A DNA stretch of 64,000 nucleotides from Tubulanus polymorphus (Eukaryota > Animalia > Nemertea): contig NC_134036.1 in the NCBI RefSeq assembly GCF_964204645.1, forward strand, positions 9,465,859 to 9,529,858, in the 5' to 3' direction. The notes beneath the pieces are model-generated. The model saw only the letters and a program-made list of their open reading frames with translations. It did not search any database and was not told the DNA's origin. The position numbers were made by a program, and so were the translations under genes. Numbering within the stretch: the stretch's first letter is position 1; each line of letters opens with the position of its first letter. Positions 27,175 through 59,040 of this stretch are shown here, piece by piece.

Positions 27175-27366
27175 GAGTAATAGGGATAATAGGCTTCCAG
27201 GTTAAAGGTCGAAGGGTCGAGCTCGTAAAAAAATGAAAATAACTATAATTTACAGTTGAATTAGTCGCGCACACTCCTAATTCAACTGCAAATTATTGTT
27301 ATTTTCATTTTTTACTCACTCGCCCCTTCAACCTTTAAACCTGAAAGCCTATTACCCCTATGACTT
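27175..27366. other. Long imperfect hairpin (~90-bp arms) upstream of pPolB
   Basis: GAGTAATAGGG...CAGTTGAATTAG / loop TCGCGCACACTC / CTAATTCAACTG...CCCTATGACT. Homologous hairpin at 56109-56236. Confidence 0.9.
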
Positions 27367-27374
27367 TTAAAATA

Positions 27375-27377
<3 letters not shown>

Positions 27378-27416
<39 letters not shown>
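27378..27416. repeat. (TA)n microsatellite
   Basis: About 19 consecutive TA units. Confidence 0.97.
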
Positions 27417-27419
<3 letters not shown>

Positions 27420-27643
27420 ATAATTTACATGAATAACATATAAATTGACAGATTTTTCAATATAAAAGTGTAAGCTCTTGTAGAATAGATATATAGATAT
27501 ATTTTAAACATTATTTCAATATTTATATTTGTATGAGTTAGATTTTTAAACATTAAAAGTGTTAGTAAAGTGTGATTGAAATAATACATGATATAAATCA
27601 TTGAACTTCTAAAATCAATTAAAAAAAAAGATTTAGTATTAAA

Positions 27644-30600
27644 ATGGAAGCAAATAAGTACTACTGTCCAACATGTAATATCAATATAGATAAATCCCAA
27701 AAAGCAAGACACAATTAAACTAAAACACATTTAGAGAATAAATTGAAACTAGAATATAAAGATGATATATTAGAAACTAAATTAGATGAAATAAAGAATG
27801 AAAAAGAAACATACAAATGTGATACATGTAATCAAACATTCAGTGATAAAGATATTATAATGAACATTTAAAATCTAAAAGTCATATTAGAAAAAAGAAT
27901 AATGATGTTTTAGGTTAAGATTATTTTGATGAAGATAATGATAAGAAACAGAAGACAATTAAAAACATAAAAGATATATTAAACAATAAAAGACCATACA
28001 TGGAAGATGTAAGAAAATATATTAATTCATTAGATAATAAAAAAGATATAGAGATTACCGAAGCATTTAAAAGTGATATTGGCCCAGCAGCTATTGAGTT
28101 TAAATTTCATAAAGGAAAAACAGAAGAAAATAAAAAAACATTTAGAAAATATGAAAGAAATAATAAAAATAATTACAGATGTTGAATATCCTAAAATAAG
28201 TATATCTTCTAAAGTAAAGTTTATAAAATCTGAAGATAAACCAATATATAATATAAATTCTCATTCACAACATATTATATCTAAACAACATATAGATGAT
28301 AAATTAGATAAATGTTATAATGAAGTAAAAACTAAAATAGAAGAGAAATATTTTGAAGGATCTGGTTTAATATTTGATGAAATAATATTTATGACTTTAC
28401 ATGTTTATAACACAAAATATAATAAGTTAACTAAATCAAAACCAATTGATGAAAATAATGTATCATATTATAAAGAACCAGATATTGAAGCATCGAGTTA
28501 TATTAAACTACCATTTAAAACTAATGCTGTAATAAATGTACAAAATGAAGATGATAAATGTTTTCTATGGGTAATAATAAGTTGTTTACATCCTGCAACT
28601 TATAATATTTGTAGATTAACTCATTATAAACCATTTGAAAATAATTATAAGATAGATAAGTATCCTGTTATAAATAAAAACATCCCAAAGATAGAAAGAG
28701 ATAATAATTTAAGAATAAATGTATTTGATTTAATCAAATTACCAAATATAAAAGGTAACAACATAAAACATTATACATTAGAACCTTTATACCTATCAAA
28801 AGATTATGATTCAAACGATGTTATAGATATACTATATTATGAGAATCATTATATGTGGATTAAACAAATAGATTTATTCTTTAGAACAGAAAGTGATCAC
28901 CATAATAAAATATATCTATGTAGAAAATGTTTACATAAATTCAGTAATGAAAGTACATTATTAAATCATAAACAATTATGTGAAAATCATGATTATTGCA
29001 AATTTGTTTTACCAAATGAAAAGGATAAAATATTAGAATTCAAAAAATATGATTACAAAAATAAAGTACCATTTGTAATATATGGAGATTTTGAATCATT
29101 AAATAAGGAACTAACTGATCAAGATAGAAAAGAAATATATTATAACAGAAAGAAATTAAATTCTAATGAAAATTATTTTTCATATGAACCACCAATAACA
29201 AATACAATTAAAAAGATTCATCAATCAGCTTTTGGATTATATATTAAATCTGATTATCCAGAACTAATTGAAAGTGAATATTATGATTATAGAAATGAAA
29301 ATGTTATCAATCATTTTTGTGACTTATTAATTGAATATGAAATAAGATTTAGTAAATTATTGAATACAAATATAGAAATTATAATGACAGAAGAAGATAA
29401 AGAAGAATTTGCGTTTGCAGATAAATGTTATTATTGTGAAAAGATATTTAATTATAAAGATAAAAAAGTAAGAGACCATGATCATTTGAACGGAAGGTTT
29501 AGAGGCGCTGCACATGAGAATTGTAACTTACAAGCTAAGAAAATTAATTTTGTACCAGTTATATTTCATAATCTATCAGGATATGATGCACATTTATTCA
29601 TCAAACCGTTATGCCATAAAATAGAAGAAATTAATAATGAAATAGAAAGATTAGATTCAAATAGATCAAAAGATAAAATACCAACTTATAAATTTAGAAT
29701 GTTAGCTAAAACATCTGAGAATTACATATCATTCCAATTTGGGTGTCTAAGATTTATAGATTCATATAGATTTTTAAATAGTTCATTAGATAACTTATCA
29801 AAATCATTAGTTGATGATGAATTAAAGATATTAAAGCAACACTACCCAAATAATGATGATTTTCAATTAATGAGATATAAAGGCGCAATTCCATATCCAT
29901 TTTATAAATCACATAATGATTTTAACATAACTGAATTATTAAAAGAACAATTCTATGATGAATTAAAAAATGAATATGTTAAAGATGAAGTATATAATAG
30001 AACATTGAATATTTGGAATCATTTCAAAATAGAAAATCATGGACAATTAGTAGATTTATATTTGAAATCAGATGTATTATTATTAACCGATATATTAGAA
30101 AGGTTTAGAGATGTAAACCTAAAATATTTTAACATTGATCCATGTCATTGTTATTCATCACCAGGTTTACCATGGGATTGTGGATTAAAATTTACAGATA
30201 TAAAAATGGATTTGTTAACCAATATAGATCAATTATTATTATTTGAAGAATCTATAAGAGGAGGAGTTTCAGGTGTATTAGGTGATAGATATTTCAATGT
30301 AAATGATGACGCTGGATATAAGTTATTATATATAGATGCAAATAATTTGTATGGTTGGGCAATGATGGAACCACAACCTTATGGAGTATTTGAATTAACT
30401 GAAGTTTTACAGAATGAAAATAATGATAAATTTGATTGGAAGAAAATAATTCTAGATATTGCAGATGATTCAGATACTGGTTACTTCTTTGTTGTAGATT
30501 TAGAATATCCTGAACACATTAAATTTAAATCTAGAAATCTAGCTTACTGTCCCGAACATAAAACTGTCACACATGAAGAATTATCAAATTACCAAAAAAG

Positions 30601-31363
30601 AATTAAACCCGAAAATCATATTCATACAGAAAAGTTAATGGTAACTCAAGAAGATAAATATAATTATGTAGTACATTATAGAATGTTAAAGTTTTATCTA
30701 AAACAAGGAATGATCCTAAAAAAAGTACATAGTTATATTTCATTTAGTCAATCTAAGTGGTTAGAAAAATATATAGATTTTAACACCAAACAGAGAACTG
30801 AAGCTAAATCTGATTTTGAGAAAGATTTCTTCAAACTAATGAACAATGCATTCTATGGTAAGACTTGTGAAAATATCAGAAATAGAAATGATATTGAGTT
30901 AGTTAGTAATGGTAAAAGAATTAGACATTTACAATCATATCCTAAGTTCATTGGTAACAGAATATTTGATGACAATTTAGCTGCAGTTAAAATGAGAAGA
31001 ACATCTATGAAATTTAATAAACCAATTTATGTTGGTGCTTCAGTTTTAGAATTATCAAAATTACTAATGTATGAATTCTATTATAATGTATTACAACCAC
31101 TTTTTGGAGAAAAACATATAGAAATCTTATATTTTGATACTGACAGTTACATATTAAAGATAAAAACTGATAACATAACTAATGATTTAAAAACATTAAA
31201 ACATCATTTTGATTTCAGTAATTATCCTAAAGATCATGAATTGTTTAGCAATGATAATAAAAAAGTTCCCGGTAAATTCAAAGATGAATTAGGTGGCGAA
31301 GAAATGATTGAATTCATTGGTATTAGATCTAAAATGTATTTTTTTGATACTGATTTTTTTTAA
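27644..31363 (+). pseudogene. polB: Protein-primed family B DNA polymerase (pPolB), intein-free allele, with N-terminal zinc fingers and an inserted HNH/EndoVII-like domain; main ORF 28073-31363
   Basis: ExoI IYGDFES, CYYC..VRDHDH..GRFRGAAH..CN, FHNLSGYDAH, FIDSYRF, YIDANNLYGWAM (motif A), KLMNNAFYGKT (motif B), YFDTDS (motif C). The N-terminus from ATG 27644 (CPTC..H, CDTC..H) is broken by stops and frameshifts, and the C-terminal thumb is truncated. Confidence 0.95.
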
Positions 31364-34759: not shown

Positions 34760-35982
34760 ACGCGTCACCGTCGTGTTAGAGAGTAACTGTAGCGGGCTTG
34801 GAGGCATTTCTTTTCTAATTTCTTCTAAAATTCTATGGAGATCGTCGTTCGTTGGAAATGACGTTGTTTTATAATCTGGACTCTTTGGCGACGGTATTTC
34901 CTTGGTATGAGTTACGAGCGGGTTTTCTTCCTTAATTACTGTCGGTGTCTTCTGTCTTTTGCCGGTCGGAACCTTGTTCTCTTTTCCCGGTTTTCTTTTA
35001 GTCGGATGAAGGATCGGGGTCTCCGGGCGACTTAATTAAACACTGGATCTCCGGAGGGGCAAATTCAAATTCATCATCGTCGTCTATCGCGACGAGTTTC
35101 ACTTTTTCGATGATCGATCTGGTATCTTCCTAGTGTCTTCTGTGTGTTTTTCTAGCATGTTGTCGAATCAGGTCTCGACGTCCGTTCTTGTAACTGCAGA
35201 GTTTGCATCGATATTCATACCCCTGATGCGGCTTACTTTGACATTTTAAATCATGCGCCTTGAGGTTCCTCATTGACGCGAAATCTTTCTTACAGTGGAC
35301 ACATAAAAATGGCGTTGTCCCGTGCATTCTGAAATGTATAATCATATTCAAAGTTACAGAGCGAGTAGCAATGGTGGTATAACTCTTCTCCCCGACCTGG
35401 TGTAAGTGGGTGGATCTGGACTGGGTTTCCAGAAGGTCAATTCAGCGAATTGCGGTTTTGTTTCATTTTCTCGCTCGTATAATTTAAGTCGGTCGAAATG
35501 CACTCGTTTAATTTTGTGTATCTTTGTGTATCTCATACCCTACGTTTAATTTTGTGTTTCTCTGTGTATCTCATACCCTACGTCATTTACTTTACGTTTG
35601 ACTGTCCAGGGACCATCCCACGGATGGTATAACTTTGGTGACATTCCCCGAGGGCAAGCGGGGTTATGAAGCCAAACTAATGCTCCGACAGAAAATGCGA
35701 CTCCGGTGGCTTTAGTATCGTAGTTACGCTTCATTCTCCGAGTCCGAACAGTAGAATTGTGTCTTGCCAAATCGTGCGCTGCACGAATACGCTCTCTTAG
35801 TTCTACGGTGAACATATTTAAGCTACGAGAGCTTTCGTGAGGCGGGCCTTCATACATTAAGTCGATGGGTAGGCGAATCTCATGCCCGAACATCAGATTC
35901 GGGGTGAATTTAGTCGAATCATGAACGGCCGATCGATAGGCCATAGCGATGAACGGCAATTGTTCGTCCCAGTCAGAGTGGT
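34760..35982 (-). mobile_element. Gypsy LTR-retrotransposon fragment (integrase C-terminus and downstream zinc-finger ORF)
   Basis: DWDEQLPFIAMAYRSAVHDSTKFTP..MFG.E.RLPIDL, KL...WDGPW.V (GPY/F module), VHFDRLK, TRSGR. Left boundary approximate. Confidence 0.85.
35130..35351 (-). CDS. Two-finger C2H2-type zinc-finger ORF downstream of the Gypsy integrase
   Basis: FLCVHC..F....NLKAH...C and YRCKLC.Y...RRDLIRQH...TH. Confidence 0.6.
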   Translation of the reverse strand: MNMIIHFRMHGTTPFLCVHCKKDFASMRNLKAHDLKCQSKPHQGYEYRCKLCSYKNGRRDLIRQHARKTHRRH

Positions 35983-35989
35983 TAATTAA

Positions 35990-38900
35990 TAAAATTAATA
36001 ATTTAAAAATATATGTATTCGAATTAATGCAATAACCAAAGACAAAAGGTGAAAATATTAAGGATTATACATTGGAAGCTTTATATTTAACAGAATATTA
36101 TGATGATGAAAATGCTATAGATTTGTTATATTACAAAAAAGATGAAAATGAACATTATATGTGGTTAAAACAAATTGATTTATTCTTTAGCACAGAAAGT
36201 GATTTTAACAGGCATAAAATTTATCTATGTAGAAAATTTTTATCTAAATTTAGAACTGAGAATGCTTTACTAAAACATAAAGAATTATGTGGTAATAAAG
36301 ATTTTTGTAAATTTATAATGCCAACAGAAAAAGATTATAAATTGAAATTTACTAATCATAAATTTAAGAATATTGTTCCATTTGTAATTTATGGGGATTT
36401 TGAATCGTTCAATAAAGAATTAACTGATCAAGATAGAAAAGAAATATATAACAAAAAGCAATTATTAAAATCAATGGATAAAGGAAATGAATTAAATGAA
36501 GACACAACACAAGATCCGCCAATTATAAACACAATTAAAAAAGTTCATCAAAGAGCTGCTGCTTATGGAATTTATATGAAATCAAATTATCCTGAATTAT
36601 ATGAAAGTCAATATATTTCTTTTAGAGGTGAAGATGTAGTTAATGATTTTTGTGACAAAATGATTGAATTTGAAAGTGATTTTGCAAAATTATTAAACAA
36701 AAATAAAAGAATAGTTATGACAAAAGAAGATGAAATTGATTTTAATTATGCAACTCATTGTTGTTGTTGTGAAAAAAACGTTTTCATTCATTTGATAAAA
36801 AAGTAAGAGATCATGATCATTTAAATTCAAAATATCGTGGAGCTGCTCATGAAGATTGTAATTTACAAGCTAAGAAAGTTAATTTCGTACCAATATTATT
36901 TCATAATTTATCAGGCTATGATACCCATCTATTTATAAAACAATTATCGAGAAAATTGGGCGCAATTAATCAAGAAATAGAAGAATATAATGCTATGAAT
37001 GGTGTAAATGTAAGAACTATTAGCTAAAACATCCGAAAATTATATTTCATTTCAATTTGGTTGCATTAGTTTTTTAGATTCTTATAGATTTCTTGCAAGT
37101 TCATAAGATAATTTATCAAAAAGTTTAGTTGATAATGATTTTATAATAACTCGATATTATTATCCAAATGAACAAGATTTTAAATTATTGAGATATAAAG
37201 GTGCAATTCCTTATTCATTTTATAAAACACACAATGATTTTAATGTAACAGAATTATTAAAAGATCAATTTTATGATCAATTAAAAGAGGAGTATGTGAA
37301 AGATGAAGTGTTTAATAGTACATTAAATATTTGGAACCATTTTAAGATGAAAAATCATGGTGAATTAGTTGATTTATACTTAAAATCAGATGTTATGATA
37401 TTGGCTGATATATTTGAAAAATTTAGAGAAGTTAATTTGAATCATTTTAATGTTGATCCTTGTTATTGCTACTCTAGTCCTGGTTTAACCTGGCAATGTG
37501 GTTTAAAATACACAAATGTAGAATTAGATTTATTAAAAGAACCAGACATGGTTTTATTATTTGAAAAATGAATTAGAGGTGGAATTAGTGGTGTTATGGG
37601 AGATAGGTATTTTAAAGCAAATGATGAATATAAATTATTATATATTGACGCCAATAATTTATATGGTTGGGCAATGATGCAACCTCAACCATACACAAAT
37701 TTTATATTGACAGAAGTTGAAAATGATGATAAAACTGATTGGGAAAGCGCAATTGCGAGTTTAAAAGATGAAACACCAATTGGTTATTTCTTTGTAGTTG
37801 ATTTAGAATATCCTGAAAATATAAAGTTTAAAACAAGAAACTTACCTTATTGCCCAGAACATTTAACCGTAGATGATAGTTATTTAAGTGAATACCAGAA
37901 GAAAATAAAACCGAAAGATCATGTTTTTACAGAAAAATTAATACTTACTCAAAATAATAAATACAATTATATTGTTCATTATAGAATGTTAAAATTTTAT
38001 CTAAAACAAGGAATGAAATTAAAGAAAGTACATAGATATATTGAATTTTTAATCAATCGAAGTGGTTAGAAAAATATATAGATTTCAATACTCAACGGAG
38101 AACCATATCAAAAAAAGATTTTGAAAAAGATTTCTTCAAATTAATGAATAATAGTTTTTATGGTAAAACATGCGAAAATATTAGAAATAGAAATGATATT
38201 GAATTAGTAAATAATTCTGAACGATTAAGACATTTACAATTAAGTCCTAGACATTTAGGAAATAAAAGATTTGAAGATTAGTTAACAGCAGTTAAATTAA
38301 AAAGAACGTCAATGAAATTTAATAAAGCTATATTAATTGGTTCAACTGTTTTAGAAGTATCAAAATTATTAATGTATGATTTTTATTATAATGTTTTACA
38401 ACCACTTTTTGGGGAAAAGCATATTGAAATATTGTATTTTGATTCTGTAACAGCTGACACCCCAATATTATTAAAATGTAATGATAAAATATTGATAAGA
38501 AGAATTTCAGAAATAATTCCCAAACAAAATGAATGTTATATTTCATATGGTGAAAAAGAATTAATACAAATAAATGGTTTAATGGATGTTTGGACAAGAA
38601 ATGGATTGAAAAAATTAAAGAATATTATTAGGCATAAAACAAATAAGAAAATCTATAGAGTTAGAACTAAATTAGGGTTTGTAGATGTTACAGAAGATCA
38701 TAGTTTAACTAAACGAATTGGCGATGAAATAAAACCAACTGATATAAACATTGGAGATGAATTATTACATAAAAGATTTTTCCAAAGAATGAATCATATG
38801 TCATTCGACGAAATTATTGATAATATTCATAATATAGAACCTGAAACATTAGAAGAAAAAGAATATTTTATCAAAGGATTTTTCATGGGTGATGGTTCAG

Positions 38901-39964
38901 CAGGTGCGTATAATTATGTTTGGGGTAATAAATATTGTTGGTATTTATGCAATCAAGACTTAAAATTATTAGAAAGAATTAAGAAATTCTGTGAAGAAGT
39001 TTATTCACATAAAACATTTAGAATCATGGATGTTATGAAATCATCAGCAGTTTATAGAATACTTGTAAATAATCCTAAAGATTTTGCTATAAAATATAAT
39101 GATGAATTCTATATTCATGCAATAGTGAAAAGTAATACTTCAACAAAAGAAAAGATAGTTCCAGATTATGTATTAAATGCAAAAAATTATTTAAGAAAAT
39201 GGTTCTTCATTGGATTCTACGCAGCAGATGGTGCTAAAAAATTTACAAAGGATAAAAAGAAAACCTTTGCACAGATAGGAAAAGTTGCTTTATCGGGGTT
39301 AAATATATTATGTAATTCATTAGGCTTCAATATGAATATTGGATTGATTAAATCTAAAGGAAATTGCTTTAATTTAAGCCACACAGAAAAAGATTTAACT
39401 GAAGAAGTTAAAGATTTATTTGAAATATATAACCCAACAGATTATGTTTATGATTTATCAACCGAAGATGGCACATTCACCTGTGGATTTCCATTAATTT
39501 GCTTCATTACTGATGCGTACATACTAAAAATCAAGACAAATGACATAACAAAAGACATAAAAACATTAAAACATCATTTTGATTTTAGCAATTATCCCAA
39601 AGATCATGAACTATTTAGCAATGATAATAAACAAATTCCTGGTAAATTTAATAATGAATTAGGGGGTGATGAAATGATTGAATTTGTTGGGATAAGAAGT
39701 AAAATGTATAGTTACAGAACAAAAGATCATGAAGCTACAAAGTTAAAAGGAATAACAAAGCATGTGGTTGATAAACATATAGAATTTCAAGATTATATAA
39801 AGTGTTTATATAACTCAATTGTAATGAAACACAAAATGAATTGTTTAAGATCAGAAGATCACGAGATGTACATTAATGAAGTTGAAAAAACTAGTTTGAA
39901 TCCATTTGATGATAAAAGGCATATTTTAGATGATGGTATAAAAACATTACCTTATGGTTATTAA
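35990..39964 (+). pseudogene. polB: pPolB, intein-containing allele; several frameshifts and stops upstream of the intein
   Basis: Collinear with copy A: IYGDFES, VRDHDH..YRGAAH..CN, YIDANNLYGWAM, KLMNNSFYGKT, YFD[intein]TDA, GIRSKMY, KLKGI, DDKRHIL.DGI.TLPYGY*. Fragmented into ORFs 36072, 37188, 37596 and 38312. Confidence 0.95.
38444..39508 (+). mobile_element. Intein (355 aa) with LAGLIDADG homing endonuclease in pPolB motif C
   Basis: In-frame 1065-bp insert absent from copy A. Block A SVTADTPIL, block B VDVTEDHSL, LAGLIDADG motifs FIKGFFMGDGS and FFIGFYAADGA, block F YVYDLSTEDGTF, and +1 Thr. The terminal residue reads Ile (ATT) where Asn (AAT) is expected. Confidence 0.95.
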
Positions 39965-41288
39965 AATGGATCAATATCATCAAACTCGAAATCGCTATTG
40001 GCTTCTTCATTTTCATTTAATTGTTCTTGTATAATTTGTTTAGGTTCTTCCATTTCATTTTTCTCATTTAAATAACGTGTTATATTGTGCCACATTTCAT
40101 CTCGCTCTCTTTGTTTCTTTTTGTTCGTCAATTCATCAAATGGAAATATAATATCTATGTTTAAATAATTTACAATCTTATTAAAAAAGAGTTCATAATT
40201 AGTTGAATCTGTTATTCTATTATCCACATAATATCTTAATATTTGTTTGAATGTTTCTTTTATATTTTCCATATCTTCTTCTGTTAATTTAGGTTTTTCA
40301 TAATTATCGTTAAATAATAAATATAAATACATTTTCTTTTGTTTTGTGTTAAATGTTGATGGAATAATTGTTTTTATAATATCTTTTTTAGTTATTTCAC
40401 CATTTTTATTTTCTATTTTTTTCATTTTTTCAAGCCATTGCATATATTCTGGTGTATGATCTTCTATAGAAAATATTTTAAAAATGTCATCTAGATAATT
40501 TAATTTTGGTTCTACGAGAAATTCTCTAGTTTTTTCATCACCCCATAAATTCTTTTGCCATCCACATTCATTACAAAATAACACAGTACCTTCTTGTCTT
40601 AAGGTCGCATAAATACATTGTGGGCATTTTTGTTTATAATTTATTGGTGATAGATCTTCATTAAGCTCTTGGTATTTTTTTACGTTTTCTTTATGTTTTA
40701 TTGTTCTATTATGTAGATTTTAATTACTTGTTGTAATAATCAATTTACAATATTTACAATAATATGTTTTTCTTGTTAATTCATTATATTGTTTTTCTAA
40801 CTTTTCAACTGTTTCTTTATTATCTGGTAACGTTTTCTCATAATTCATTTTTTCTAATATTTTATTTTTTCTTTCATTGAATTCTGCTTCAAATTTATTA
40901 GAAATTTTTATCTATATGTACTTTACGAAATTGATGATTCTCCCAATCTTCTATATTTTCAGGGCTATATTTTATTCGACAAGGCTCACAGAAATAATCT
41001 TTTATATTATCCTTATCATAGAATAAGAAAGGTCTTTTCCAAATAATTTCAGATTCAACTTCAACAGAATTACTATTACTTTCATTACTATCAACATTAG
41101 CCGTTGCGCCATTAATTTTACACTTCTCTGAATGATTTTTAACATAATTTCTTGAGAATAATTTATTACATTTAGGGCAGTTTATTTTAGGGGGTTTATA
41201 ATTTTCATCGTGTTTTTTTCATATGTCGAGCCATATTACTTTTTCTTAGAAGTTCACCACAAATTTCGCATGGTATCTTCTCATCCAT
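39961..41288 (-). pseudogene. Multi-zinc-finger protein fused to a VLTF3 (poxvirus A2)-like late transcription factor domain; open C-terminal ORF 39961-40584
   Basis: From ATG 41288: four CxxC..H fingers (two frameshifts, one stop), then a CPQC-x12-CNECG zinc ribbon and F.QI...NY..FF.KI...L....FP...L...K.RERD.MW..I...L, matching my recollection of the VLTF3 C-terminus. Confidence 0.68.
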
Positions 41289-41357
41289 TTATTTAGGAAA
41301 AATTTTATCAAAATTAATTTTTAGTGATGAGCGGTAATTTTTTTATGTTATAAATAA

Positions 41358-42020
41358 ATGGTAGAATTAAAAGAATACAGAATATTTGTTGATTCTAGAA
41401 AACTTTCAAATTATAAATCACATAATTTACTAATACAATTAGATAGAGAATTTGAGAATTGTGTTGATTTAAAATTAGTAAATATAAGTTTATGTAACTC
41501 ATTTTACAATATATCGGATAAAAGTCTAGAACATTTAATTTTTTCAATCTTTTACAAAAAAAGGAATAAATGTTTTTTTATATATTTAAAACCAGGATTA
41601 TATAATTTAGATACATTAGCACAAGAGATTAAATGAAAAGCTCGAGCTGAATTAGGAAGTGATTCCGGATTTAGTATTAGATTTTCAAAAAGTCATAGTT
41701 CTAATAAAAGAAGGTAGATCAAATTTAATGCCTTTTACACACTTTTATATTTATTGCAATTTAATCGATCCTACACAAACATTTGATTGAAGCAACTAAA
41801 GATAAAACTTGCAATTCTAGTATACTAAATATTTTTACCATTAAAAAATGTTAAACAATTTGGAACTCAAATAAATTTTAATTTAACAGAATGTGATTTT
41901 AAACTTTGCATTCCACATTTCAATAATTTCAAATTAGAAATAAGAAATCATAATGGTTATTTAATTGATTTAAATAACTTTCCTGTGATATATGAATTAG
42001 TTATAAGATGTAGAGAGTAA
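41358..42020 (+). pseudogene. Minor capsid protein (penton)-like, disrupted
   Basis: IFVDS..L.IQL......LKLV.....NSFYNIS...YLKPGLYNLDTL, then FYIYCNLID and FKLEIRNHNGYLIDLNNFPVIYEL in downstream frames. This pattern is typical of Polinton single jelly-roll proteins. Confidence 0.7.
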
Positions 42021-42036
42021 TTTTTTCATTATATAA

Positions 42037-42297
42037 ATGAATATAACTGTTGGACCGAGTATATGTTTTGGGTTTGATTTTAAACATGAGAAAGAAATGA
42101 AATTAAACATTAATGATGTAATAACACATATTAAAAATATTGCATTTTCTAATGAAACAACATTTGAGTATGAAACAACAATAGATAATGAAACTTTAAA
42201 TGTAGAAAAGATTACTAATTTAATTAGAGAATCTTTAAGATTTTATGAATTAGTTGAACATTTTATCATCGATGATATTAAAAAAAATAATAATTGA
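42037..42297 (+). CDS. Polinton hypothetical protein
   Basis: ORF preceded by the shared TAAATG motif. Confidence 0.6.
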   Translation: MNITVGPSICFGFDFKHEKEMKLNINDVITHIKNIAFSNETTFEYETTIDNETLNVEKITNLIRESLRFYELVEHFIIDDIKKNNN

Positions 42298-42393
42298 AAT
42301 ATATACAAATGAAACTGGTATTGAAATAAATGTTGAATTAATCATTAATAAGTTAGCTAAATATTTTGAAGATAGTATTTTTTTTATTAATAA

Positions 42394-42615
42394 ATGAGTG
42401 ATAATAAGTGGATAATAACTGGATTATATAATGGAGCATTACTATCAGTTGGAACTGTTGGTTATTCAATGGTATTAAAGAAAGTATTTAAAATGGGAAG
42501 TGTTAATGTTGATAGATTTGATATCAATGATATTTTAAAATTAACATTAGCAGTTACTTTATCTAATTTAACTATTGATCATTTGGAAAAACAAAAATAT
42601 ATTCCTCCTATATAA
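42394..42615 (+). CDS. Small Polinton membrane-associated protein (73 aa)
   Basis: Intact ORF with the shared motif and two hydrophobic or amphipathic segments. Confidence 0.7.
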   Translation: MSDNKWIITGLYNGALLSVGTVGYSMVLKKVFKMGSVNVDRFDINDILKLTLAVTLSNLTIDHLEKQKYIPPI

Positions 42616-42639
42616 ATGCGTAATTATTTTACTAAATAA

Positions 42640-43062
42640 ATGGCTTCTGCAGTTATAACTATTATAGGATCAGCAATTGTTAACGCTTTAGCATTTACTG
42701 GTGGTGGTTATTTATTTAAGCATATCGATAAAAATGGGTCATTAACAGAACAAAAAAGACATAACTTAGCATTAGAGAAATACAATAAAGCTGCAGAAGA
42801 ATATAGAGAAAAGAGGCAAAACTACATGGATTATATTAACAAGGAATTATATGATCAGAAGACTTCACATAGAGATTTTCAATCAGTTGATGGTGCAATG
42901 AGTTTATATAACGCGGTAACCAATAAAGAACAATTACATCTATACAAATCTAAATTATCAGATTATTATACCCCGAGTAAAGAACAACAGAAATATGAAA
43001 TAATATGGATTTTAGGTGGAACTGTTATTGTTATATATGTAGCATATAGATTTACTAATTAG
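42640..43062 (+). CDS. Polinton protein with N- and C-terminal hydrophobic helices and a central coiled coil (140 aa)
   Basis: Intact ORF with the shared motif; IIGSAIVNALAFTGGGYLF...KRHNLALE...WILGGTVIVIYVAY. Confidence 0.75.
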   Translation: MASAVITIIGSAIVNALAFTGGGYLFKHIDKNGSLTEQKRHNLALEKYNKAAEEYREKRQNYMDYINKELYDQKTSHRDFQSVDGAMSLYNAVTNKEQLHLYKSKLSDYYTPSKEQQKYEIIWILGGTVIVIYVAYRFTN

Positions 43063-43082
43063 TAATTTTTTTTGCTAAATAA

Positions 43083-43508
43083 ATGGATGATAATATTGAT
43101 AATATTCCTCATGATATAAATAAACATAAATTAAAAATATATTTAGAAAAACAAATATTAGAATTTGAAAATGATTTAAAAGTTAAGAAGAAAAAATATT
43201 TAAAATCTAAAATTATTTATTGTTTTATTAATAGTGGTTCGGTTACAATTAGTTCTGTAATAACATTTCTAGCAATATTCAGCCCACTAACACCTTTAGC
43301 TATATCAATTGGTGTATTAGGATTAAGTTCAAGTGTTTTAACTGGTATAAGTTGAAAATTAAATATAAAAAGTAATAAAGAAAAAATTAAAACTAATATA
43401 AAAGAAATTAATAAATTAAAGAATACACTAGATTATATAATAAGTTTAAATGGTCATATAACAGTTGAAGAACAAGATAAATTATTAAAAGAATTAATAA
43501 ATTATTAA
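43083..43508 (+). pseudogene. Polinton two-TM, coiled-coil protein with one in-frame stop (43353-43355)
   Basis: Hydrophobic hairpin SGSVTISSVITFLAIFSPLTPLAISIGVLGLSSSVLTGI. The frame continues past TGA to TAA at 43508, just before the next gene motif. Confidence 0.65.
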
Positions 43509-43523
43509 TTTTTTATCATATAA

Positions 43524-44836
43524 ATGGTAGATAGTTTTCCAAAAGCTTTCCAATATTATAAATCAATTAAATATAATATTCCAGCAATAGATTTTACTAA
43601 AGATATTTCATATAGAAATGAAGTTTTAAATTCATTAATTGATTTATATATTTATGTTACTGAAAGTAATAATTTTCATGTAAAGATGGAAAATATATTC
43701 AATGTTTATGAAATTAATTTTAAAGATTTAAATGAGGCAAAACAATGGTTATTAAAATCTTATATGAAGTATTGGCAGAACCAATTAAATTTTGCTGTTT
43801 ATTGTGCAACAACAGGATGTGGAATTAGTTGGAATGATCATTTGAATAAACCAAGTTTACCATTGATGTTATCACTTTTTAGATTGCATACTTATTTTCA
43901 AATAAAATTAATATTAGATGAATTAGAATGTCCTTTACCAGGTTCAAAATACTTTAATGAACTAAATAATAATATTAATTTTTCAAAGTTTTATAAATTA
44001 TGTAATGAATTTAATATTAATTCAAATAAAGATTTTAGAGCAAAAATTGGAACAATGGGTGGATTAGGAATATTATATACTAAAGAATTTGGAAAAATAA
44101 GGACAAATTCAGATATAAGAACACTAAATTGGAATGAATTACCAAAATATTATAATAATATACAACAACAAAACAATAATGGTTGGGTTAATTTCATTTT
44201 AGAAAATATTGAAGGTTTTACTAAAGCTGGAATACAAAGAATAAATCAAACTTATTTGATATGTATTTTAGGCGCTCAAGTTGAAACAAGATCACCAATA
44301 GTTGGAAATGATAACACTTCATTTGATGCGCAGAAACAATTCAAAGTATTATTTGAAGATTCCATTCATAATGATAAAAATAGATCGATTCCAGAAAACA
44401 TTGTAAGATATCAAAATTATTTAGATAAATCTCATGTAAGACTAAATTATTGTATAGGCCCTAAACTTTTAATTATTGCTAATGATTTAGTACTAAAGCT
44501 GGGAAACATAATTGGTTATAATAATCTAACTAAACTGCAACAGTAAATAATTCATTTGGGTTGAATGATATAAATAAAAAGATTATTACTGCCCCAAAAT
44601 TAATGGAAGGTGAAAAAAATAAAAAACATATTCAATCAACAGAAACTAAAACTAAGAATATTAAATTCAATAATGATTCTAAACCGGATTATAATACATC
44701 AGAAAATATTAAAACTGATAATATTCAACAGGATATAATTAAAACTGATAATGATAATAAATTCCATGAAAATACTAAATTAGCTTTAACTTGTATAGGA
44801 ATTGTAATCGGAGGAATGTTATATTTTAAATTTTAA
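43524..44836 (+). pseudogene. Conserved Polinton hypothetical protein with a C-terminal TM anchor; ORFs 43524-44546 and 44561-44836 are probably one frameshifted gene
   Basis: YWQNQLNFAVYCATTGCGIS motif. The second ORF lacks both an ATG and the TAAATG motif and ends in LALTCIGIVIGGMLYF. Confidence 0.65.
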
Positions 44837-44851
44837 TTTTTTATTATATAA

Positions 44852-46308
44852 ATGGATGTAGAAGGTGGAGAAGATATTGGAATGGATACTTTTGATGAAC
44901 CTGGCATAACTGATGAACAACAACCTGATTTTAGTGAAACAAGTTTTAATGACGGTAATGAGCCAGAATATAATAACAATTTAAATATGCCTGATTATAT
45001 TAAAAATGCAGAATCACAATTAAATCCTGAAAATTTAGACCCAGATTTAGTAAAACAAGATTTAGAAAATTTAAACAAAATACCTAAATTAGAACGTATA
45101 ATTGAAAATTCTAAATTTAACATAAATGATGAAGACGTTGGACCTTTAGCAGATAAATTAAAATTTTTAGATAATGGTAAATGGTATTATCATTTGAAAG
45201 ATGATTATTATATTGATATCACTTTTAAAAATGAAAACAAAATATTAGCAAAATCAACTTTAGACAAATTAGAACCAGGTAGAATTAAAAGAACTAGTAA
45301 TAGTAATGTAATAACTGATGTTATAAAACAAGAATTAACTGTAAATGATATAGACGTATTTAAACAAAAAATTAATGAATTATTTGACAAAATCAAAAAG
45401 AAATCAGAAACAGAAATAACTTCTGAACATAATATAACTTCCAATACTAGTAAACTTAAATCAAATAAATTGAAAAACTTTTACCGAATGGATTAATTGA
45501 TGCAACAGATCAAGAATTAGAAGATTTAAATAATATATTTTCTGTTGAAGCAATTAGAGAAATAAAAAGTATATGACTTGCATCTGATAAAATTGCGCAT
45601 GATATAAGTATAAGAGATTTTAAAATTCGAACTTTAGAAAAAGAATTAACTGATAAAAATAAAGAAATAGAACAATTAACGTCTGATTTAGATCATCAAG
45701 TAATTGATGTAATAGAATATAGGCAAAAAGAATTACGTTTAGAAAAAGAAATAGATGATTTAAAATATAACATAGAATTACAAAAAGAAAAAATTAAATT
45801 ATTATTAAAATCATATGATTATAATGTTAATAGATTAAAAGTTATTTTTAAAGATTTGTTGATAAAACCAAATTCTGAAATATCATTAAAAGATAGAATA
45901 AAGTTATTATTTAAATTAGAAGGAATAACAATTCTTTCAATTCTAACAGCTGTAACTATGTTATTTACAGCAATTGGTTTAGCAATATCAAATTCTTTGA
46001 AATCTACTCCTACTCCCAATAAACCGGATAAACCCCCGAATGATAATAATTCTATACAAGATAAAGTTAAGGATGGTTTAAAGAAATTAGCCAAATATTT
46101 ATGGGAACTATCTAAAAAATCTGCTGCAGCATTACCCGGAATTATTGCATCAATTGTTGGTTTTATATTGAAATCTGCAGGTAATATTCTTAACTTTGCT
46201 GCTGAACATATTATTTCATTTTTAATTACAGTTGTAAGTGCTATTATTTTTGGGTTAGTGAATATGATATCAAAAAGATATCAAGAAAAAGTAATAAAAA
46301 ATAAATAA
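44852..46308 (+). pseudogene. Large Polinton protein (acidic N-terminus, coiled coil, C-terminal TM segments), disrupted into ORFs 44852-45496 and 45856-46308
   Basis: Single TAAATG start, coiled-coil-like coding between the two ORFs, and EGITILSILTAVTMLFTAIGLAI...KSAAALPGIIASIVGFIL. Confidence 0.65.
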
Positions 46309-46328
46309 TTAATTTTTTTGTTAAATAC

Positions 46329-46707
46329 ATGAGTGGGAGTTATATAAGTCCTTCTAAGATTTCTAGAATATCTATGCTATTAAAGCAGAAAGATCACATC
46401 ATATAATTACTCATAATCCTTCAAATATTAATCCCGATGAAACTTTATATGTTAGAATTCCTAGATTAACACAAAATACTTTTTATGTTCCAAATAGTAT
46501 TTATTTATCAGCCGATATAAAAGTAACTGGTCATGATAATAATTGTGTTGTCGATAATGTTGGGAGATATTTGATTAAAAAATTAACTATAAAGATTGGT
46601 CCAGAAACAGTTTTCTCATTAGATGATTATAATTTATTTATGCATTATAAAGATTTATGGTTAACTAAAGAAAATAGAAATAATATGATATTTCAAGGCA
46701 TTCAATC
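46329..46707 (+). pseudogene. Major capsid protein (double jelly-roll) N-terminal third, frameshifted and truncated
   Basis: ERSHHIITHNPSNINPDETLYVRIPRL...YVPNSIYL...VVDNVGRYLIKKL.IK...VFSLDDY.LF.HYKDLWLT...R.NMIFQGIQ, matching my recollection of invertebrate Polinton MCP N-termini. Composition breaks at ~46707. Confidence 0.72.
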
Positions 46708-47207: not shown

Positions 47208-47288
47208 CTGTATGTAGTTGGCGTTGATATAGTCGCTATAAGGATCAGCGCCAGTCTCAACTTCCAGCACGACTCGAGAGGCATCATC
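47208..47288 (-). pseudogene. Orphan exon of a classical (receptor-type) protein tyrosine phosphatase
   Basis: DDASRVVLEVETGADPYSDYINANYIQ (PTP motifs DxxRVxL and DYINA) followed by donor CAG|GTAAT. The acceptor AG is missing. Confidence 0.82.
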
Positions 47289-49666: not shown

Positions 49667-52444
49667 CAGGTTCAAAATACTTTAATGAACTAAATAATAA
49701 TATTAATTTTTCAAAGTTTTATAAATTATGTAATGAATTTAATATTAATTCAAATAAAGATTTTAGAACAAAAATTGGAACAATGGGTGGATTAGGAATA
49801 TTATATACTAAAGAATTTGGAAAAATAAGGACAAATTCAGATATAAGAACACTAAATTGGAATGAATTACCAAAATATTATAATAATATACAACAACAAA
49901 ACAATAATGGTTGGGTTAATTTCATTTTAGAAAATATTGAAGGTTTTACTAAAGCTGGAATACAAAGAATAAATCAATCTTTTAGAACTTATTTGATATG
50001 TATTTTAGGCGCTCAAGTTGAAACAAGATCACCAATAGTTGGAAATGATAACACTTCATTTGATGCGCAGAAACAATTCAAAGTATTATTTGAAGATTCC
50101 ATTCATAATGATAAAAATAGATCGATTCCAGAAAACATTGTAAGATATCAAAATTATTTAGATAAATCTCATGTAAGACTAAATTATTGTATAGGCCCTA
50201 AACTTTTAATTATTGCTAATGATTTAGTACTAAAGCTGGGAAACATAATTGGTTATAATAATCTAACTAAACTGCAACAGTAAATAATTCATTTGGGTTG
50301 AATGATATAAATAAAAAGATTATTACTGCCCCAAAATTAATGGAAGGTGAAAAAAATAAAAAACATATTCAATCAACAGAAACTAAAACTAAGAATATTA
50401 AATTCAATAATGATTCTAAACCGGATTATAATACATCAGAAAATATTAAAACTGATAATATTCAACAGGATATAATTAAAACTGATAATGATAATAAATT
50501 CCATGAAAATACTAAATTAGCTTTAACTTGTATAGGAATTGTAATCGGAGGAATGTTATATTTTAAATTTTAATTTTTTATTATATAAATGGATGTAGAA
50601 GGTGGAGAAGATATTGGAATGGATACTTTTGATGAACCTGGCATAACTGATGAACAACAACCTGATTTTAGTGAAACAAGTTTTAATGACGGTAATGAGC
50701 CAGAATATAATAACAATTTAAATATGCCTGATTATATTAAAAATGCAGAATCACAATTAAATCCTGAAAATTTAGACCCAGATTTAGTAAAACAAGATTT
50801 AGAAAATTTAAACAAAATACCTAAATTAGAACGTATAATTGAAAATTCTAAATTTAACATAAATGATGAAGACGTTGGACCTTTAGCAGATAAATTAAAA
50901 TTTTTAGATAATGGTAAATGGTATTATCATTTGAAAGATGATTATTATATTGATATCACTTTTAAAAATGAAAACAAAATATTAGCAAAATCAACTTTAG
51001 ACAAATTAGAACCAGGTAGAATTAAAAGAACTAGTAATAGTAATGTAATAACTGATGTTATAAAACAAGAATTAACTGTAAATGATATAGACGTATTTAA
51101 ACAAAAAATTAATGAATTATTTGACAAAATCAAAAAGAAATCAGAAACAGAAATAACTTCTGAACATAATATAACTTCCAATACTAGTAAACTTAAATCA
51201 AATAAATTGAAAAACTTTTACCGAATGGATTAATTGATGCAACAGATCAAGAATTAGAAGATTTAAATAATATATTTTCTGTTGAAGCAATTAGAGAAAT
51301 AAAAAGTATATGACTTGCATCTGATAAAATTGCGCATGATATAAGTATAAGAGATTTTAAAATTCGAACTTTAGAAAAAGAATTAACTGATAAAAATAAA
51401 GAAATAGAACAATTAACGTCTGATTTAGATCATCAAGTAATTGATGTAATAGAATATAGGCAAAAAGAATTACGTTTAGAAAAAGAAATAGATGATTTAA
51501 AATATAACATAGAATTACAAAAAGAAAAAATTAAATTATTATTAAAATCATATGATTATAATGTTAATAGATTAAAAGTTATTTTTAAAGATTTGTTGAT
51601 AAAACCAAATTCTGAAATATCATTAAAAGATAGAATAAAGTTATTATTTAAATTAGAAGGAATAACAATTCTTTCAATTCTAACAGCTGTAACTATGTTA
51701 TTTACAGCAATTGGTTTAGCAATATCAAATTCTTTGAAATCTACTCCTACTCCCAATAAACCGGATAAACCCCCGAATGATAATAATTCTATACAAGATA
51801 AAGTTAAGGATGGTTTAAAGAAATTAGCCAAATATTTATGGGAACTATCTAAAAAATCTGCTGCAGCATTACCCGGAATTATTGCATCAATTGTTGGTTT
51901 TATATTGAAATCTGCAGGTAATATTCTTAACTTTGCTGCTGAACATATTATTTCATTTTTAATTACAGTTGTAAGTGCTATTATTTTTGGGTTAGTGAAT
52001 ATGATATCAAAAAGATATCAAGAAAAAGTAATAAAAAATAAATAATTAATTTTTTTGTTAAATACATGAGTGGGAGTTATATAAGTCCTTCTAAGATTTC
52101 TAGAATATCTATGCTATTAAAGCAGAAAGATCACATCATATAATTACTCATAATCCTTCAAATATTAATCCCGATGAAACTTTATATGTTAGAATTCCTA
52201 GATTAACACAAAATACTTTTTATGTTCCAAATAGTATTTATTTATCAGCCGATATAAAAGTAACTGGTCATGATAATAATTGTGTTGTCGATAATGTTGG
52301 GAGATATTTGATTAAAAAATTAACTATAAAGATTGGTCCAGAAACAGTTTTCTCATTAGATGATTATAATTTATTTATGCATTATAAAGATTTATGGTTA
52401 ACTAAAGAAAATAGAAATAATATGATATTTCAAGGCATTCAATC
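49667..52444 (+). mobile_element. Duplicated Polinton B segment (ORFs 49783, 50298, 50589, 51593 and the MCP fragment 52066-52444)
   Basis: Translations are identical to those of 43939-46707 apart from a 3-aa indel (SFR) and one substitution. Confidence 0.93.
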
Positions 52445-56108: not shown

Positions 56109-56236
56109 TAAGTAATAGGGAATATATTGTTTCAAGCCAAAGGTCGAAGGGTCGAAAAATAATTTCTCGCACACTCGAATTTATTTTTCGACCCTTCAAC
56201 CTTTAACTTGAAACAACTTATTCCCTATTACTCTTA
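56109..56236. other. Long imperfect hairpin (~56-bp arms) homologous to 27175-27366
   Basis: AGTAATAGGGAA...AAAGGTCGAAGGGTCGAAAAATAA / loop CGCACACTC / TTATTTTTCGACCCTTCAACCTTT...TTCCCTATTACT. Confidence 0.9.
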
Positions 56237-56290
56237 TAATTTTCATATAATAACTTCTAAAATCAATTTTAATAAAAATATGTTATTAAA

Positions 56291-56628
56291 ATGGAGAGTA
56301 AACAAATACATAGTGAATTCTTAGATAGAATCAAAGATACTACAAATGTCAAATCTGTAGATTATAACTTTAAGAAGTTAACAGAATTAACAATTCATAA
56401 GAAATATATAATTACCAACATTGATACAGTTTCTAATAAATATGGAGATAAATTAATAATTCACTCTAGAATATGAAAGATTAAAAGGAAATAAATATAA
56501 ATTCAGAATTTATTTACCAGATAGATTTCATAGGTTATCTAGTGAAGATTTAGAAGAATTATGGTGATTTCTATTTCATATATTAGGGTAAGAATAAAAA
56601 AGAGCACCATGAAATAGATTTCGAATAA
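56291..56628 (+). pseudogene. Small Polinton ORF upstream of pPolB, frameshifted
   Basis: MESKQ...FKKLTEL...KKYII.....VSNKYG.KLII...FRIYLPDRF. Preceded by the same AAAATCAATT...TATTAAAATG motif as pPolB. Confidence 0.6.
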
Positions 56629-56664
56629 TATAAAATCAATTTTAATAAAAAAATTAGTATTAAA

Positions 56665-58533
56665 ATGGAAGCAATGAGAAATACCATTGTCCAACATGTA
56701 AAATCAATATAGATAAATCCCAAAAAGCAAGACAGAATAAAACTAAAACGAATTTAGAGAATAAATTGAAATTAGAATATAAAGATGATACATTAGAAAC
56801 TAAATTAGAAGAATTAAAGAATGAAAAAGAAATATATAAATGTGATGAATGTAATCAATCACTCAGTAAGAAAAGATATTGAAAAGAACATTTAAAATCT
56901 AAAAGTCATATTAGAAATATGAATAATGATATTTTAGGTGAAGATTATTTTGATAAAGATAATGATAAGAAACAGAAGACAATTAAAAGAATAAAAAATA
57001 AATTAAACAATAAAAGATCATACATAGAAGATGTTAGAAATTATATTAATTCATTAGATAATAAAAAGAGATAGATATAACTGAAGCATTTAAAAGTGAT
57101 ATTGGTCCAGCAGCTATTGAGTTTAAATTTCATAGAGGTAAAACATTAGAAGAAAAAAAAACATTTAGAAAATATGAAAAATATGATAAGGATAATTACA
57201 GATGTAGAATACCCTAAAATTAGTATATCTTGTAAAGTTAAATTTATAAAATAAAATGTGAAGATAAACCAATATGTAATATAAATTCTCATTCACAACA
57301 TATCATATCTAAACAACATATAGCTGATAGATTAAATGAATGTTATAATGAAATAAAAAGTAAAATAGAAGAGAAATATTTTGAAGGATCAGGTTTTATA
57401 TTTGAAGAAATAATATTTATGGCTTTACATGTTTATAACACAAAATATAATAAGTTAACTAAATCAAAACCAATTGATGAAAATAATTTATCATATTATA
57501 AAGATGATAATATAAATGGATCAAGTTATATCAAAATACAATTTAAAACTAATGCTGTTATAAATGTACAAAATGAAGATGATAAAAGTTTTCTATGGTC
57601 AATAATTAGTTGCTTACACCCAGTTGAAGATTATAAACAACATAGTTTTAGATTAACACATTATAAACCATTTGAAAATGATTATCAGATAGATAACTAT
57701 CTTGTAAGAATTAAAAATATCCCAAAAATAGAAAGAGATAAAATTACCAAAAACATAAGGTAACAATATAAAACATTTTACATTAGAGCCTTTCTATTTA
57801 TCAAAAGATTATGATTTAAATGGTGTTATAGATATATTATATTATGAAAATCATTATATGTGGATTAAAAGAATTGATTTATTTTTTAAATCAGAAGATG
57901 ATTTTGATTATAAAATATATCTATGTAGAAAATGTATAACTAAATTCAAAACTGAAAGTGCATTATTAAATCAATTATGTGAAAATCATGATTATTGTAA
58001 AATGGTTTTACCAAATGAAAAAGATAAAGTATTAGAATTCAAAAAATATGATTACAAGAATAAGGTACCATTTGTAATATATGGAGATTTTGAATCATTA
58101 AATAAAGAATTAACTAATCAAGATAGAAAAGAAATATATTATAAAAGAAAGAAATAAAATTGTAATGAAAATGATGTAATTGATTATTCAGATCCTCTAA
58201 TAACAAATAATATTAAAAAGATTCATCAATCAGCTGCAGCTTTTGGATTATATATTATATCTGATTATCCAGAATTAATCAAAAGTGAATATTATATTTA
58301 TAGAAATGAAAATGTTATCAATCATTTTTGTGAATATGAAATGAAGTTTAGTAAACTAATAGATACAAATATAGAAATTATAATGACAGAAGAAGATAAA
58401 GAAGAATTTGAGTTTGCAGATAAATGTTATTATTGCGAAAAACTATTTAATCTAAAAGATAAAAAAGTAAGAGACCATGATCATTTGAATGGAAAGTTTA
58501 GAGGCGCAGCGCATGAGAATTGTAACTTACAAG
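56665..58533 (+). pseudogene. polB: pPolB 5' half (zinc fingers, terminal-protein region, ExoI, HNH-like), heavily disrupted
   Basis: Aligns by eye with 27644-29533 (NAVINVQNEDDK.FLW, VPFVIYGDFES, VRDHDHLNGKFRGAAHENCNLQ). Confidence 0.92.

Positions 58534-59002: not shown

Positions 59003-59040
<38 letters not shown>

Follow-up and report, generated by a model that had tools for sequence, protein, structure and literature searches.

We analyzed a 64,000-nucleotide stretch of the Tubulanus polymorphus genome (the window) and found that positions 35983..46707 are a truncated, broken Polinton of a multi-copy family. The strongest new point of our analysis is a start motif, repeated along the element, that has the layout of a poxviral late promoter. 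We suggest, with a probability of about 0.45, that a co-infecting large DNA virus supplies the pox-type RNA polymerase that transcribes the genes of intact family members. This reading, drawn from sequence comparison, leads only narrowly over one in which a late factor of the element's own recruits host Pol II.

Polinton fragments and their gene content

The main element, fragment B, has genes on both strands and is cut on the left inside the polymerase gene and on the right inside the major capsid protein (MCP) gene. Several of the genes between carry stops or frameshifts, and the defective state noted in an earlier sequence-only reading is borne out. Its GC content is 20-27%, compared with 33-45% in the flanks, and 499 raw reads continue with other sequence past 46707. 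Two further fragments lie on the plus strand. Fragments A (27176..31345) and C (56111..58533) each have a palindromic left end. In A it is followed by a long protein-primed PolB (pPolB) reading frame that stays open over 28052-31363, is truncated close to the 3' end and has no intein at the insertion site; in C, by the 5' half of pPolB in broken form. Both left ends start with AGTAAT; no right end occurs within the window. A second copy of 43939-46707 is found at 49667..52444 on the plus strand, in a 5.7-kb tandem duplication that is 99.8% identical and takes in host flank too. The closest relative of fragment B is locus L042, at 83-85% amino acid identity. An apparent amplification in run X1 was rejected: the high depth is a sum over many contigs, and the raw reads do not match. 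A marine metagenome contributed a share of 0.05, in short partial pieces only, and was not used for habitat.

The polymerase gene of fragment B (36036..39964, plus strand) is 5'-truncated and split into six pieces, with stops and frameshifts inside. Matches to PF03175 (E 5.7e-14 for copy A, 2.6e-5 for one piece of B) identify it as a protein-primed PolB, and it contains an Endonuclease VII-like insert, as does copy A. The MCP gene (46329..46707, plus strand) retains only its first ~125 codons, with one frameshift. This piece is 35-42% identical to full-length relatives, one of which (39% identical) folds as a double jelly roll, the capsid type of Polintons (Polintoviricetes). The MCP named in the earlier reading is confirmed by these relatives and their fold, for the 5' part present. 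For the L065 MCP, a model (pLDDT 51) retrieved the capsids of PBCV-1, SGIV and mavirus with E-values of 1e-11 to 1e-13; in this low-confidence model, PBCV-1 and SGIV rank at or above mavirus and Sputnik. A sequence search of PDB with the A3 profile gave no capsid. The MCP is not of the virophage type (Maveriviricetes), its relatives being Polinton proteins, and the viral_contigs set held no relative of pPolB or MCP. RVE integrase, A32 ATPase and protease are absent from the truncated window fragments; an integrase is present in the close relative L038, and integrase and ATPase in L053 and L065.

The remaining plus-strand genes begin with a likely penton, or minor capsid protein (41358..42020), broken by stops and frameshifts. 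Its Atlas feature scores are 0.97-0.98, with one cluster set carrying DUF5901 on 10% of members, and its recognition score of 1890 falls under the tool's 2300 mark, which makes the penton of the earlier reading a feature-level lead on a broken gene. There follow an 86-aa ORF with no family found (42037..42297); a 73-aa conserved Polinton protein with homologues in L054 and L065 and no segment above the hydropathy cut-off (42394..42615); a conserved Polinton protein of 140 aa that has two hydrophobic segments and homologues in 14 of 80 loci (42640..43062); a hydrophobic ORF, interrupted by a stop, that has one segment above the cut-off and no homologue in the loci (43083..43508); and a 340-aa conserved Polinton protein, 29-36% identical to L065, L066 and L070, for which no function was found and Atlas was uninformative (43524..44546). 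A 77-aa ORF with a borderline hydrophobic tail starts with TTAATG (44603..44836). At 44852..46308, an acidic N-terminal piece and a coiled-coil/three-helix hydrophobic piece probably belong to a single broken gene, comparable to the ~450-aa gene next to MCP in relatives. About five of these products had been taken for membrane proteins; at a Kyte-Doolittle cut-off of 1.6, three of the five pass, one is borderline (1.57) and one fails (1.16). The membrane-containing virion proposed from them is not supported: homologues of three of the five occur in ordinary Polintons related to this one, and membrane-active genes have been published for adintoviruses.

The start motif and its possible readers

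The start motif, a T-run at -12..-7, a 6-nt spacer and TAAATG, recurs on the plus strand across 41340..44854, with ATGs at 41358, 42037, 42394, 42640, 43083, 43524 and 44852, and occurs on the minus strand at ATG 41288. Position by position, T fills -12..-7 in 7-8 of 8 starts and A fills -1 in all 8; the MCP start has the T-run and has not kept TAAATG. The TAAATG starts pointed out in the sequence-only reading are well above chance: they open 7/9 first ATGs compared with 10/114 other ATGs in fragment B (p 8e-6), and their T-run spacing is fixed relative to 15 other TAAATG sites (p 1.6e-4). Between 41300 and 46707 we counted 17 TAAATG sites against 7.0±2.5 expected, and in the polymerase region 4 against 5.5. 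Five close relatives show TAAATG at 11/14 starts, polymerase genes included. The figure for other pPolB loci is 29/459 overall (19/207 AT-rich, 10/252 GC-rich), these control sets containing spurious ORFs that lower their rates. The strict motif opens 4/14 starts in the close relatives and 0/459 in the other loci. A sigma-70 scan stayed at chance level and is irrelevant here.

A candidate factor for this motif is encoded at 39961..41288 on the minus strand, where a zinc-finger and VLTF3-like gene lies in three pieces (40898-41218, 40720-40911 and 39961-40719); its intact counterpart in L042 (P0152) is a single 697-aa gene. The VLTF3-like label given by the earlier reading finds its support in fold. 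Pfam VLTF3 (PF04947) has no match at E<=1 to the window protein and none to its three homologues, nor did it match in the one of five giant-virus records reached. A word search for VLTF3 homologues returned none, and hhalign against the true Polinton VLTF3 of L053 gave no match (probability 2%). A structure model (pLDDT 67) searched against BFVD placed VLTF3 names at ranks 2, 3, 5, 6, 7, 9 and 10, at 13-20% identity; of six matches with E<=0.001, four carry the name late transcription factor/VLTF3, one has no name and one is named exonuclease. PDB fold matches are weak, to TFIIB and Rap94 chains (E>=0.14). The fold search supports a zinc ribbon plus a helical domain with a predicted VLTF3 fold; with identities of 13-20% and three homologues, the data do not suffice for a tree. 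The VLTF3-like factor plausibly has TAAATG as its target, which would make the two one trait, and the independence of the three traits in the earlier reading is not confirmed. L042 combines this gene with TAAATG starts but lacks the intein.

The start layout matches the published vaccinia late promoter, with its T core, 5-7 bp spacer and TAAAT(G) over the start codon (PMC5294985; PMC11980589), a large-virus late motif. We propose that the motif would act as promoter, its initiator overlapping the start codon, that the element's own VLTF3 would direct a polymerase to it, and that this pox-type polymerase would be supplied by a helper. This proposal draws on the motif geometry and on TAAAT/TAAAN initiators in vaccinia and yeast virus-like elements, where a pox-type polymerase slips and adds a 5' poly(A) leader (PMC6211774). 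It also draws on the absence of an RNA polymerase gene from the window fragments and scanned relatives, none of them a complete element, and on two precedents: mavirus promoters, which resemble the late motif of its helper (10.1101/068312), and Polinton-like viruses (PLVs) present in entomopoxvirus occlusion bodies (PMC11296320). Several observations count against it. The analysis turned up no sequence, transcript or particle of a helper. Full helper machinery would leave no obvious need for an own VLTF3, the sister group of the intein is not poxviral, and left-end genes in the window begin with TAAAATG. The element is 76-80% AT, and TAAATG also opens 58/486 ORFs in viral contigs. The traits name no single helper, because the intein relatives are metagenomic giant-virus PolBs and the promoter looks poxviral.

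Other arguments against a helper favor an autonomous nuclear Polinton, a tentative alternative that we take seriously, wherein the VLTF3-like (TFIIB-like) factor brings host Pol II to the T-run/TAAATG starts, both having been inherited together from a large-virus ancestor. Mriyaviruses have VLTF3, lack an RNA polymerase and are probably nuclear (PMC11253617), and VLTF3 has already been reported in coral polintoviruses (PMC11131425, which cites Krupovic and Koonin 2016). Among other pPolB loci, L109 and L114 carry TBP and TFIIB-like genes, and L053, with a Pfam-level VLTF3, has TATA <=12 nt from 11/11 starts; the TFIIB and Rap94 fold matches point the same way. However, an initiator over the ATG would, unless the polymerase slips, yield transcripts with next to no leader, and the VLTF3-like gene and the polymerase gene themselves start with the motif, which would require another activator first. 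Considerably less probable is a reading in which extreme AT content and translation context produced the TAAATG starts as a side effect, with no link to VLTF3 or a viral polymerase. The low GC content agrees with it, as do a few AT-rich loci with several TAAATG starts (4/14 in L080, 3/5 in L094), but it does not account for the enrichment over other ATGs in the same DNA, the fixed T-run spacing or the strict motif's absence from the AT-rich control loci (0/207), and the TAA of the motif is not the stop codon of the preceding gene. It is very improbable that a pox-type polymerase is encoded in the missing right part of the intact element itself, in the way that yeast virus-like elements pair TAAAN initiators with their own RNA polymerase (PMC6211774), since no such gene occurs in the window or in scanned ORFs of relatives, and those relatives that share the structural genes resemble ordinary Polintons with an integrase.

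The Pol-c intein

The intein story is separate from the promoter story and older. The Pol-c intein of the earlier reading is indeed present at 38444..39508 on the plus strand: a 355-aa LAGLIDADG intein with two LAGLIDADG-type motifs, Ser first and Ile last, in frame between YFD and TD of polymerase motif C, where empty alleles have no insert. Its Pfam matches are Intein_splicing (E 1.4e-6) and LAGLIDADG_3 (E 0.004), both below curated cut-offs, and homologues numbered 283 and 79. The splice features S1, block B TEDH (TxxH) and +1 Thr are present. The C-terminal Asn (or Gln) is replaced by Ile, compared with Asn in six other full-length Polinton-type inteins, and because of this absence the intein of fragment B is predicted not to splice. 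The Asn end of all 116 intein homologues is circular, as their extraction required Asn, and was not used. TDA in motif C was rejected as a private lesion, since the intein-free L038 has it too. No exact read joint skipping the intein was found among the 15 of 117 and 15 of 37 joints listed.

In our careful tree, the seven Polinton-type inteins form one clade (support 100/99) whose sister (95/93) comprises inteins including those of giant-virus MAG PolBs; a short C-terminal signature is shared by exactly these 7 and 19 sister-group inteins among 143. Two cheaper trees gave other, unstarred sisters. The nearest relatives are other Polinton-type inteins at 45-61% identity, and 17 of the 37 loci fetched for Pol-c intein relatives are GVMAG contigs. 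Two donor candidates were rejected, as they appear in quick trees only and are absent from the careful one: an asfarvirus-like donor (P0075, resembling PDB 8ywg, which we take to be the ASFV polymerase) and a Pol delta-like donor (P0009). Intein-bearing and intein-free alleles coexist in one genome, fragment B being filled and fragment A empty; 7 of the 15 listed members of the P0004 cluster have the intein, and P0133 is contiguous across the insertion site. The single clade, together with the intein's absence from L042 and neighboring copy A, points to one old capture, shared by divergent Polintons, and then patchy spread. The likely course is a single acquisition by an ancestral Polinton, with a giant-virus-type PolB as donor and the equivalent site in motif C as the point of insertion, after which the intein was probably retained in some Polintons, lost from others and spread again by homing. 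The intein transfer from a giant virus claimed earlier is supported by the tree as far as a giant-virus-type PolB source goes, but it does not point to this element's own partner.

Implications and known systems

For animal Polintons, transcription and the need for a helper are an open question, and their virions have yet to be observed (10.64898/2026.06.19.733378). With its sharp pox-type start motif, the present lineage makes the transcription question testable: 5' poly(A) leaders would indicate a pox-type polymerase, and upstream capped starts host Pol II. The intein clade directly supports the published guess that homing endonuclease inserts in pPolB stem from intein invasions (PMC11071308) and would record at least one co-infection of a Polinton and a giant virus, while filled and empty alleles in one genome offer material for studying homing. 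Taken to its full extent, this would make a Polinton lineage in the animal germline a satellite of an undiscovered pox-like virus, its own late factor recruiting the polymerase of that helper to promoters of the pox type, and with an intein of giant-virus origin still moving by homing between Polinton copies in animal genomes, a composite picture that we consider doubtful.

Like the Polintons/Mavericks (adintoviruses) of animals, the family of fragment B has a pPolB with an endonuclease insert, a double jelly-roll MCP, a likely penton, conserved hydrophobic accessory genes, AGT-type ends and many integrated copies, with integrase and A32 ATPase found in its relatives. Unlike them, it has pox-style starts and, within pPolB, a true Hint/LAGLIDADG intein; our literature search found neither described for Polintons. 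It shares a VLTF3-like gene with VLTF3-carrying coral polintoviruses, yet here the gene is far diverged, with no Pfam match, is fused to zinc fingers and is accompanied by a fixed start motif. Mavirus and the entomopoxvirus-associated PLVs are likewise pPolB elements that integrate, and the late signal of a helper is present, or may be present, at their genes. There, dependence was shown or argued from co-occurrence, whereas here it is inferred from the motif alone; the entomopoxvirus PLV paper (PMC11296320) makes no mention of promoter, TAAATG, VLTF or intein. The vaccinia late promoter and the yeast pGKL initiator have the same T core, 5-7 bp spacer and TAAATG over the start codon, but in those systems the RNA polymerase is self-encoded and none was seen here. 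Finally, the Pol-c inteins of giant-virus PolBs share the D|TDS site of motif C, the Ser start, the LAGLIDADG domain and 33-40% identity with the fragment B intein, whose host protein, in contrast, is a protein-primed polymerase.

Copy state and structural genes

The window holds three AT-rich Polinton fragments, A (27176-31345), B (35983-46707) and C (56111-58533), set in host DNA of 33-45% GC. B, the element under study, breaks off inside the polymerase gene on one side and the capsid gene on the other, and the majority of its genes carry stops or frameshifts, bearing out the sequence-only reading that this copy is defective. The right half of B and its flank form a 5.7-kb tandem duplication (99.8% identity), whose units (43939-49646 and 49667-55382) span B's cut end and host DNA; this near-perfect identity reflects either a recent duplication or an assembly artefact. 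In a run with the same species label, raw DNA read depth was ~170-1080x on B versus 53-66x on its left flank, which shows a multi-copy family; the flank could be repetitive too, and the depth ratios are therefore not copy numbers. B's flank includes an intron-less rhodopsin-family GPCR gene (profile match E 1.5e-17), present in three copies (48087-49034 and 53824-54771, both minus strand, and near 17454-19604), which points to an animal host. A retrotransposon integrase C-terminus remnant (35546-36064, minus strand; weak Pfam matches) adjoins B's left break, and tandem arrays lie at 11987-12351 (59 nt), 14994-15473 (91/72 nt) and 58877-59076 (6 nt). The left ends at 27176-27365 and 56111-56232 are long imperfect palindromes beginning AGTAAT, with a similar loop, that fold at z about -15 as single-stranded DNA and could be self-folding termini; a relative, L039, also has a palindromic left end (183-453).

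Copy A encodes a protein-primed PolB (pPolB; PF03175, E 5.7e-14) that contains an Endonuclease VII-like insert. Among 80 metagenome loci fetched using the polymerase as query, several encode homologues of B's 73-, 140-, 340- and 243-aa proteins and its major capsid protein (MCP), adjoined by an integrase and an A32 ATPase. The proposed MCP is confirmed: B's piece matches that of the relatives, and the structure model of one full-length relative matches double jelly-roll capsids. The proposed penton is a lead from a feature-level match. Of the five genes proposed to encode membrane proteins, three exceed the hydropathy cut-off and two fall below it; L054, L065 and L070, GC-rich relatives whose gene starts lack TAAATG, have homologues of three of the five. 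Nothing in B's genes shows the suggested membrane-containing virion. Membrane-active accessory genes are described in adintoviruses (PMC8502044).

An intein with a patchy distribution

The 355-aa intein proposed for the Pol-c site was indeed found at 38444-39508, between YFD and TD of polymerase motif C. It ends in Ile in place of the terminal Asn and is therefore predicted not to splice. Its best matches are in three pPolBs (61, 48 and 45% identity), followed by RNA-primed PolBs (27-44%) with the insert at the identical site. A further search extended the Polinton-type set by three full-length inteins and eight partial ones, with P0156, too short in its flank, counted by likeness alone. Of the 37 viral contigs that the intein retrieved, 17 are giant-virus MAG contigs. 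The same family occurs in P0089, a green-algal Pol delta (source name Chloropicon primus), and P0163-P0190 are split or N-truncated PolBs of 650-800 aa with Pol-c inteins near the N-terminus.

Of 143 inteins extracted, 52 were chosen for a careful tree. It groups the seven Polinton-type inteins in a single clade (100/99), whose sister group (95/93) consists of 13 Pol-c inteins, P0018, P0025 and P0027 among them. P0018 and P0027 are >99% identical to PolBs on two giant-virus MAG contigs. A shortened tail is common to the seven Polinton-type and 19 sister-group inteins and occurs in 0/117 others. Two quick trees, one of 117 rows and one of 142 that left out the long-branch P0113, recovered the Polinton clade (97 and 99) with differing, unstarred sisters. 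Transfer of the intein from a giant-virus-type PolB is supported by the careful tree.

The intein is absent from copy A (80-81% aa identity at the site flanks), from B's nearest relative, L042 (83-85%), and from all 80 metagenome loci. Read depth was ~165-245x on the intein versus 500-545x around A's empty site. The P0004 cluster is a second Polinton family, with 136 members and ENA contigs as long as 1.0 Mb; 7 of 15 members listed carry the intein, and intein-bearing and intein-free alleles occur within 90% identity, making this cluster a good system for the study of intein homing. Intein and flank have diverged similarly in P0003 and P0004, and the P0005 intein is 45% identical to B's despite a polymerase with no BLAST likeness; this pattern fits a capture long ago and prolonged residence since, with one or more jumps from one polymerase class to another. 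Swapping of pPolB classes has been published (10.1101/2023.08.22.554363), and intein invasion has been proposed as the origin of endonuclease inserts in pPolB (PMC11071308). Our literature search on Polinton polymerases and inteins showed no such intein among the papers listed, though adintovirus and coral supplements may hold annotations; the Anaeramoeba intein paper does not mention Polintons.

Gene starts and the transcription machinery

TAAATG marks 7/9 plus-strand ORFs of at least 70 aa in 41300-46707 versus 10/114 other ATGs (p 8e-6), upholding the proposed start motif; one of the two misses falls at an ATG inside a broken gene. The VLTF3-like gene also begins with TAAATG. Across eight starts, selected for having TAAATG, T occupies positions -12 to -7 in 7, 7, 7, 8, 7 and 7 cases, followed by 6 nt and TAAATG. 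Five close relatives (21-23% GC) have TAAATG at 11/14 starts, with an A-rich stretch replacing the T-run in many replication-side genes. Control frequencies were 19/207 in 33 AT-rich pPolB loci, 10/252 in 42 GC-rich ones and 58/486 in 37 viral contigs; the strict layout of T-run, spacer and TAAATG occurred 0, 0 and 3 times, respectively. The control sets contain some spurious ORFs and some loci that are not verified as Polintons. At the left ends of A and C, genes begin TAAAATG, which speaks against a uniform motif. Our search found no literature on TAAAT starts in Polintons, most subscription papers lying outside it; these pox-style starts and the intein in a Polinton polymerase are apparently both undescribed.

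The minus-strand pieces at 39961-41288 correspond to one 697-aa gene, intact in L042 (P0152) and tail to tail with pPolB. Its identification as VLTF3-like is partly supported: Pfam does not recognise B's protein, and profile comparison gave no match to the true VLTF3 of L053, but a model of the last piece (four sequences, pLDDT 67) matches mostly VLTF3 proteins in BFVD. Entomopox and cowpox proteins rank 2, 3 and 6, which does not place the gene with poxviruses because those proteins are short and only 13-18% identical. VLTF3 is already known from polintoviruses (PMC11131425) and some PLVs (10.64898/2026.06.19.733378). L053 is a Polinton with the same structural genes and a Pfam-level VLTF3 (E 1.3e-16); TATA, resembling the asfarvirus late motif TATATA, lies within 12 nt of 11/11 starts, a count to be read with caution in TA-rich intergenic DNA.

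L042 has the start motif and VLTF3-like factor together without the intein, so intein and transcription are two stories and the three traits are not the independent evidence that had been argued. The sequence-only reading was largely right in observation and overstated in synthesis: B's capsid places it outside the virophage class, and its lineage would work like a virophage only if it borrows a polymerase. Transcription of an autonomous element by host Pol II is a close rival reading, somewhat less probable than a borrowed polymerase. Mriyaviruses have VLTF3 without their own RNA polymerase (PMC11253617), and other pPolB loci carry TBP and TFIIB-like genes. These genes lie side by side in L109 (4718-5856) and L114 (5255-6618), which L093 resembles by ORF listing.

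We tentatively favour use of a borrowed pox-type RNA polymerase (roughly 45%), since the predicted initiator resembles those served by a slipping polymerase, no RNA polymerase gene was seen in the window fragments or scanned relatives, and the motif also covers replication genes. The initiator overlapping the ATG would be read by a slipping pox-type polymerase, as serves TAAAT/TAAAN initiators over ATG in vaccinia and yeast virus-like elements (PMC6211774). Mavirus promoters matched to its helper likewise cover replication genes (10.1101/068312). The A-rich stretches of the relatives resemble intermediate promoters, and B's starts, with their T-run, short spacer and TAAATG, resemble vaccinia late promoters, in which a T core with a conserved T at -10 lies 5-7 bp before TAAAT(G) (PMC5294985, PMC11980589).
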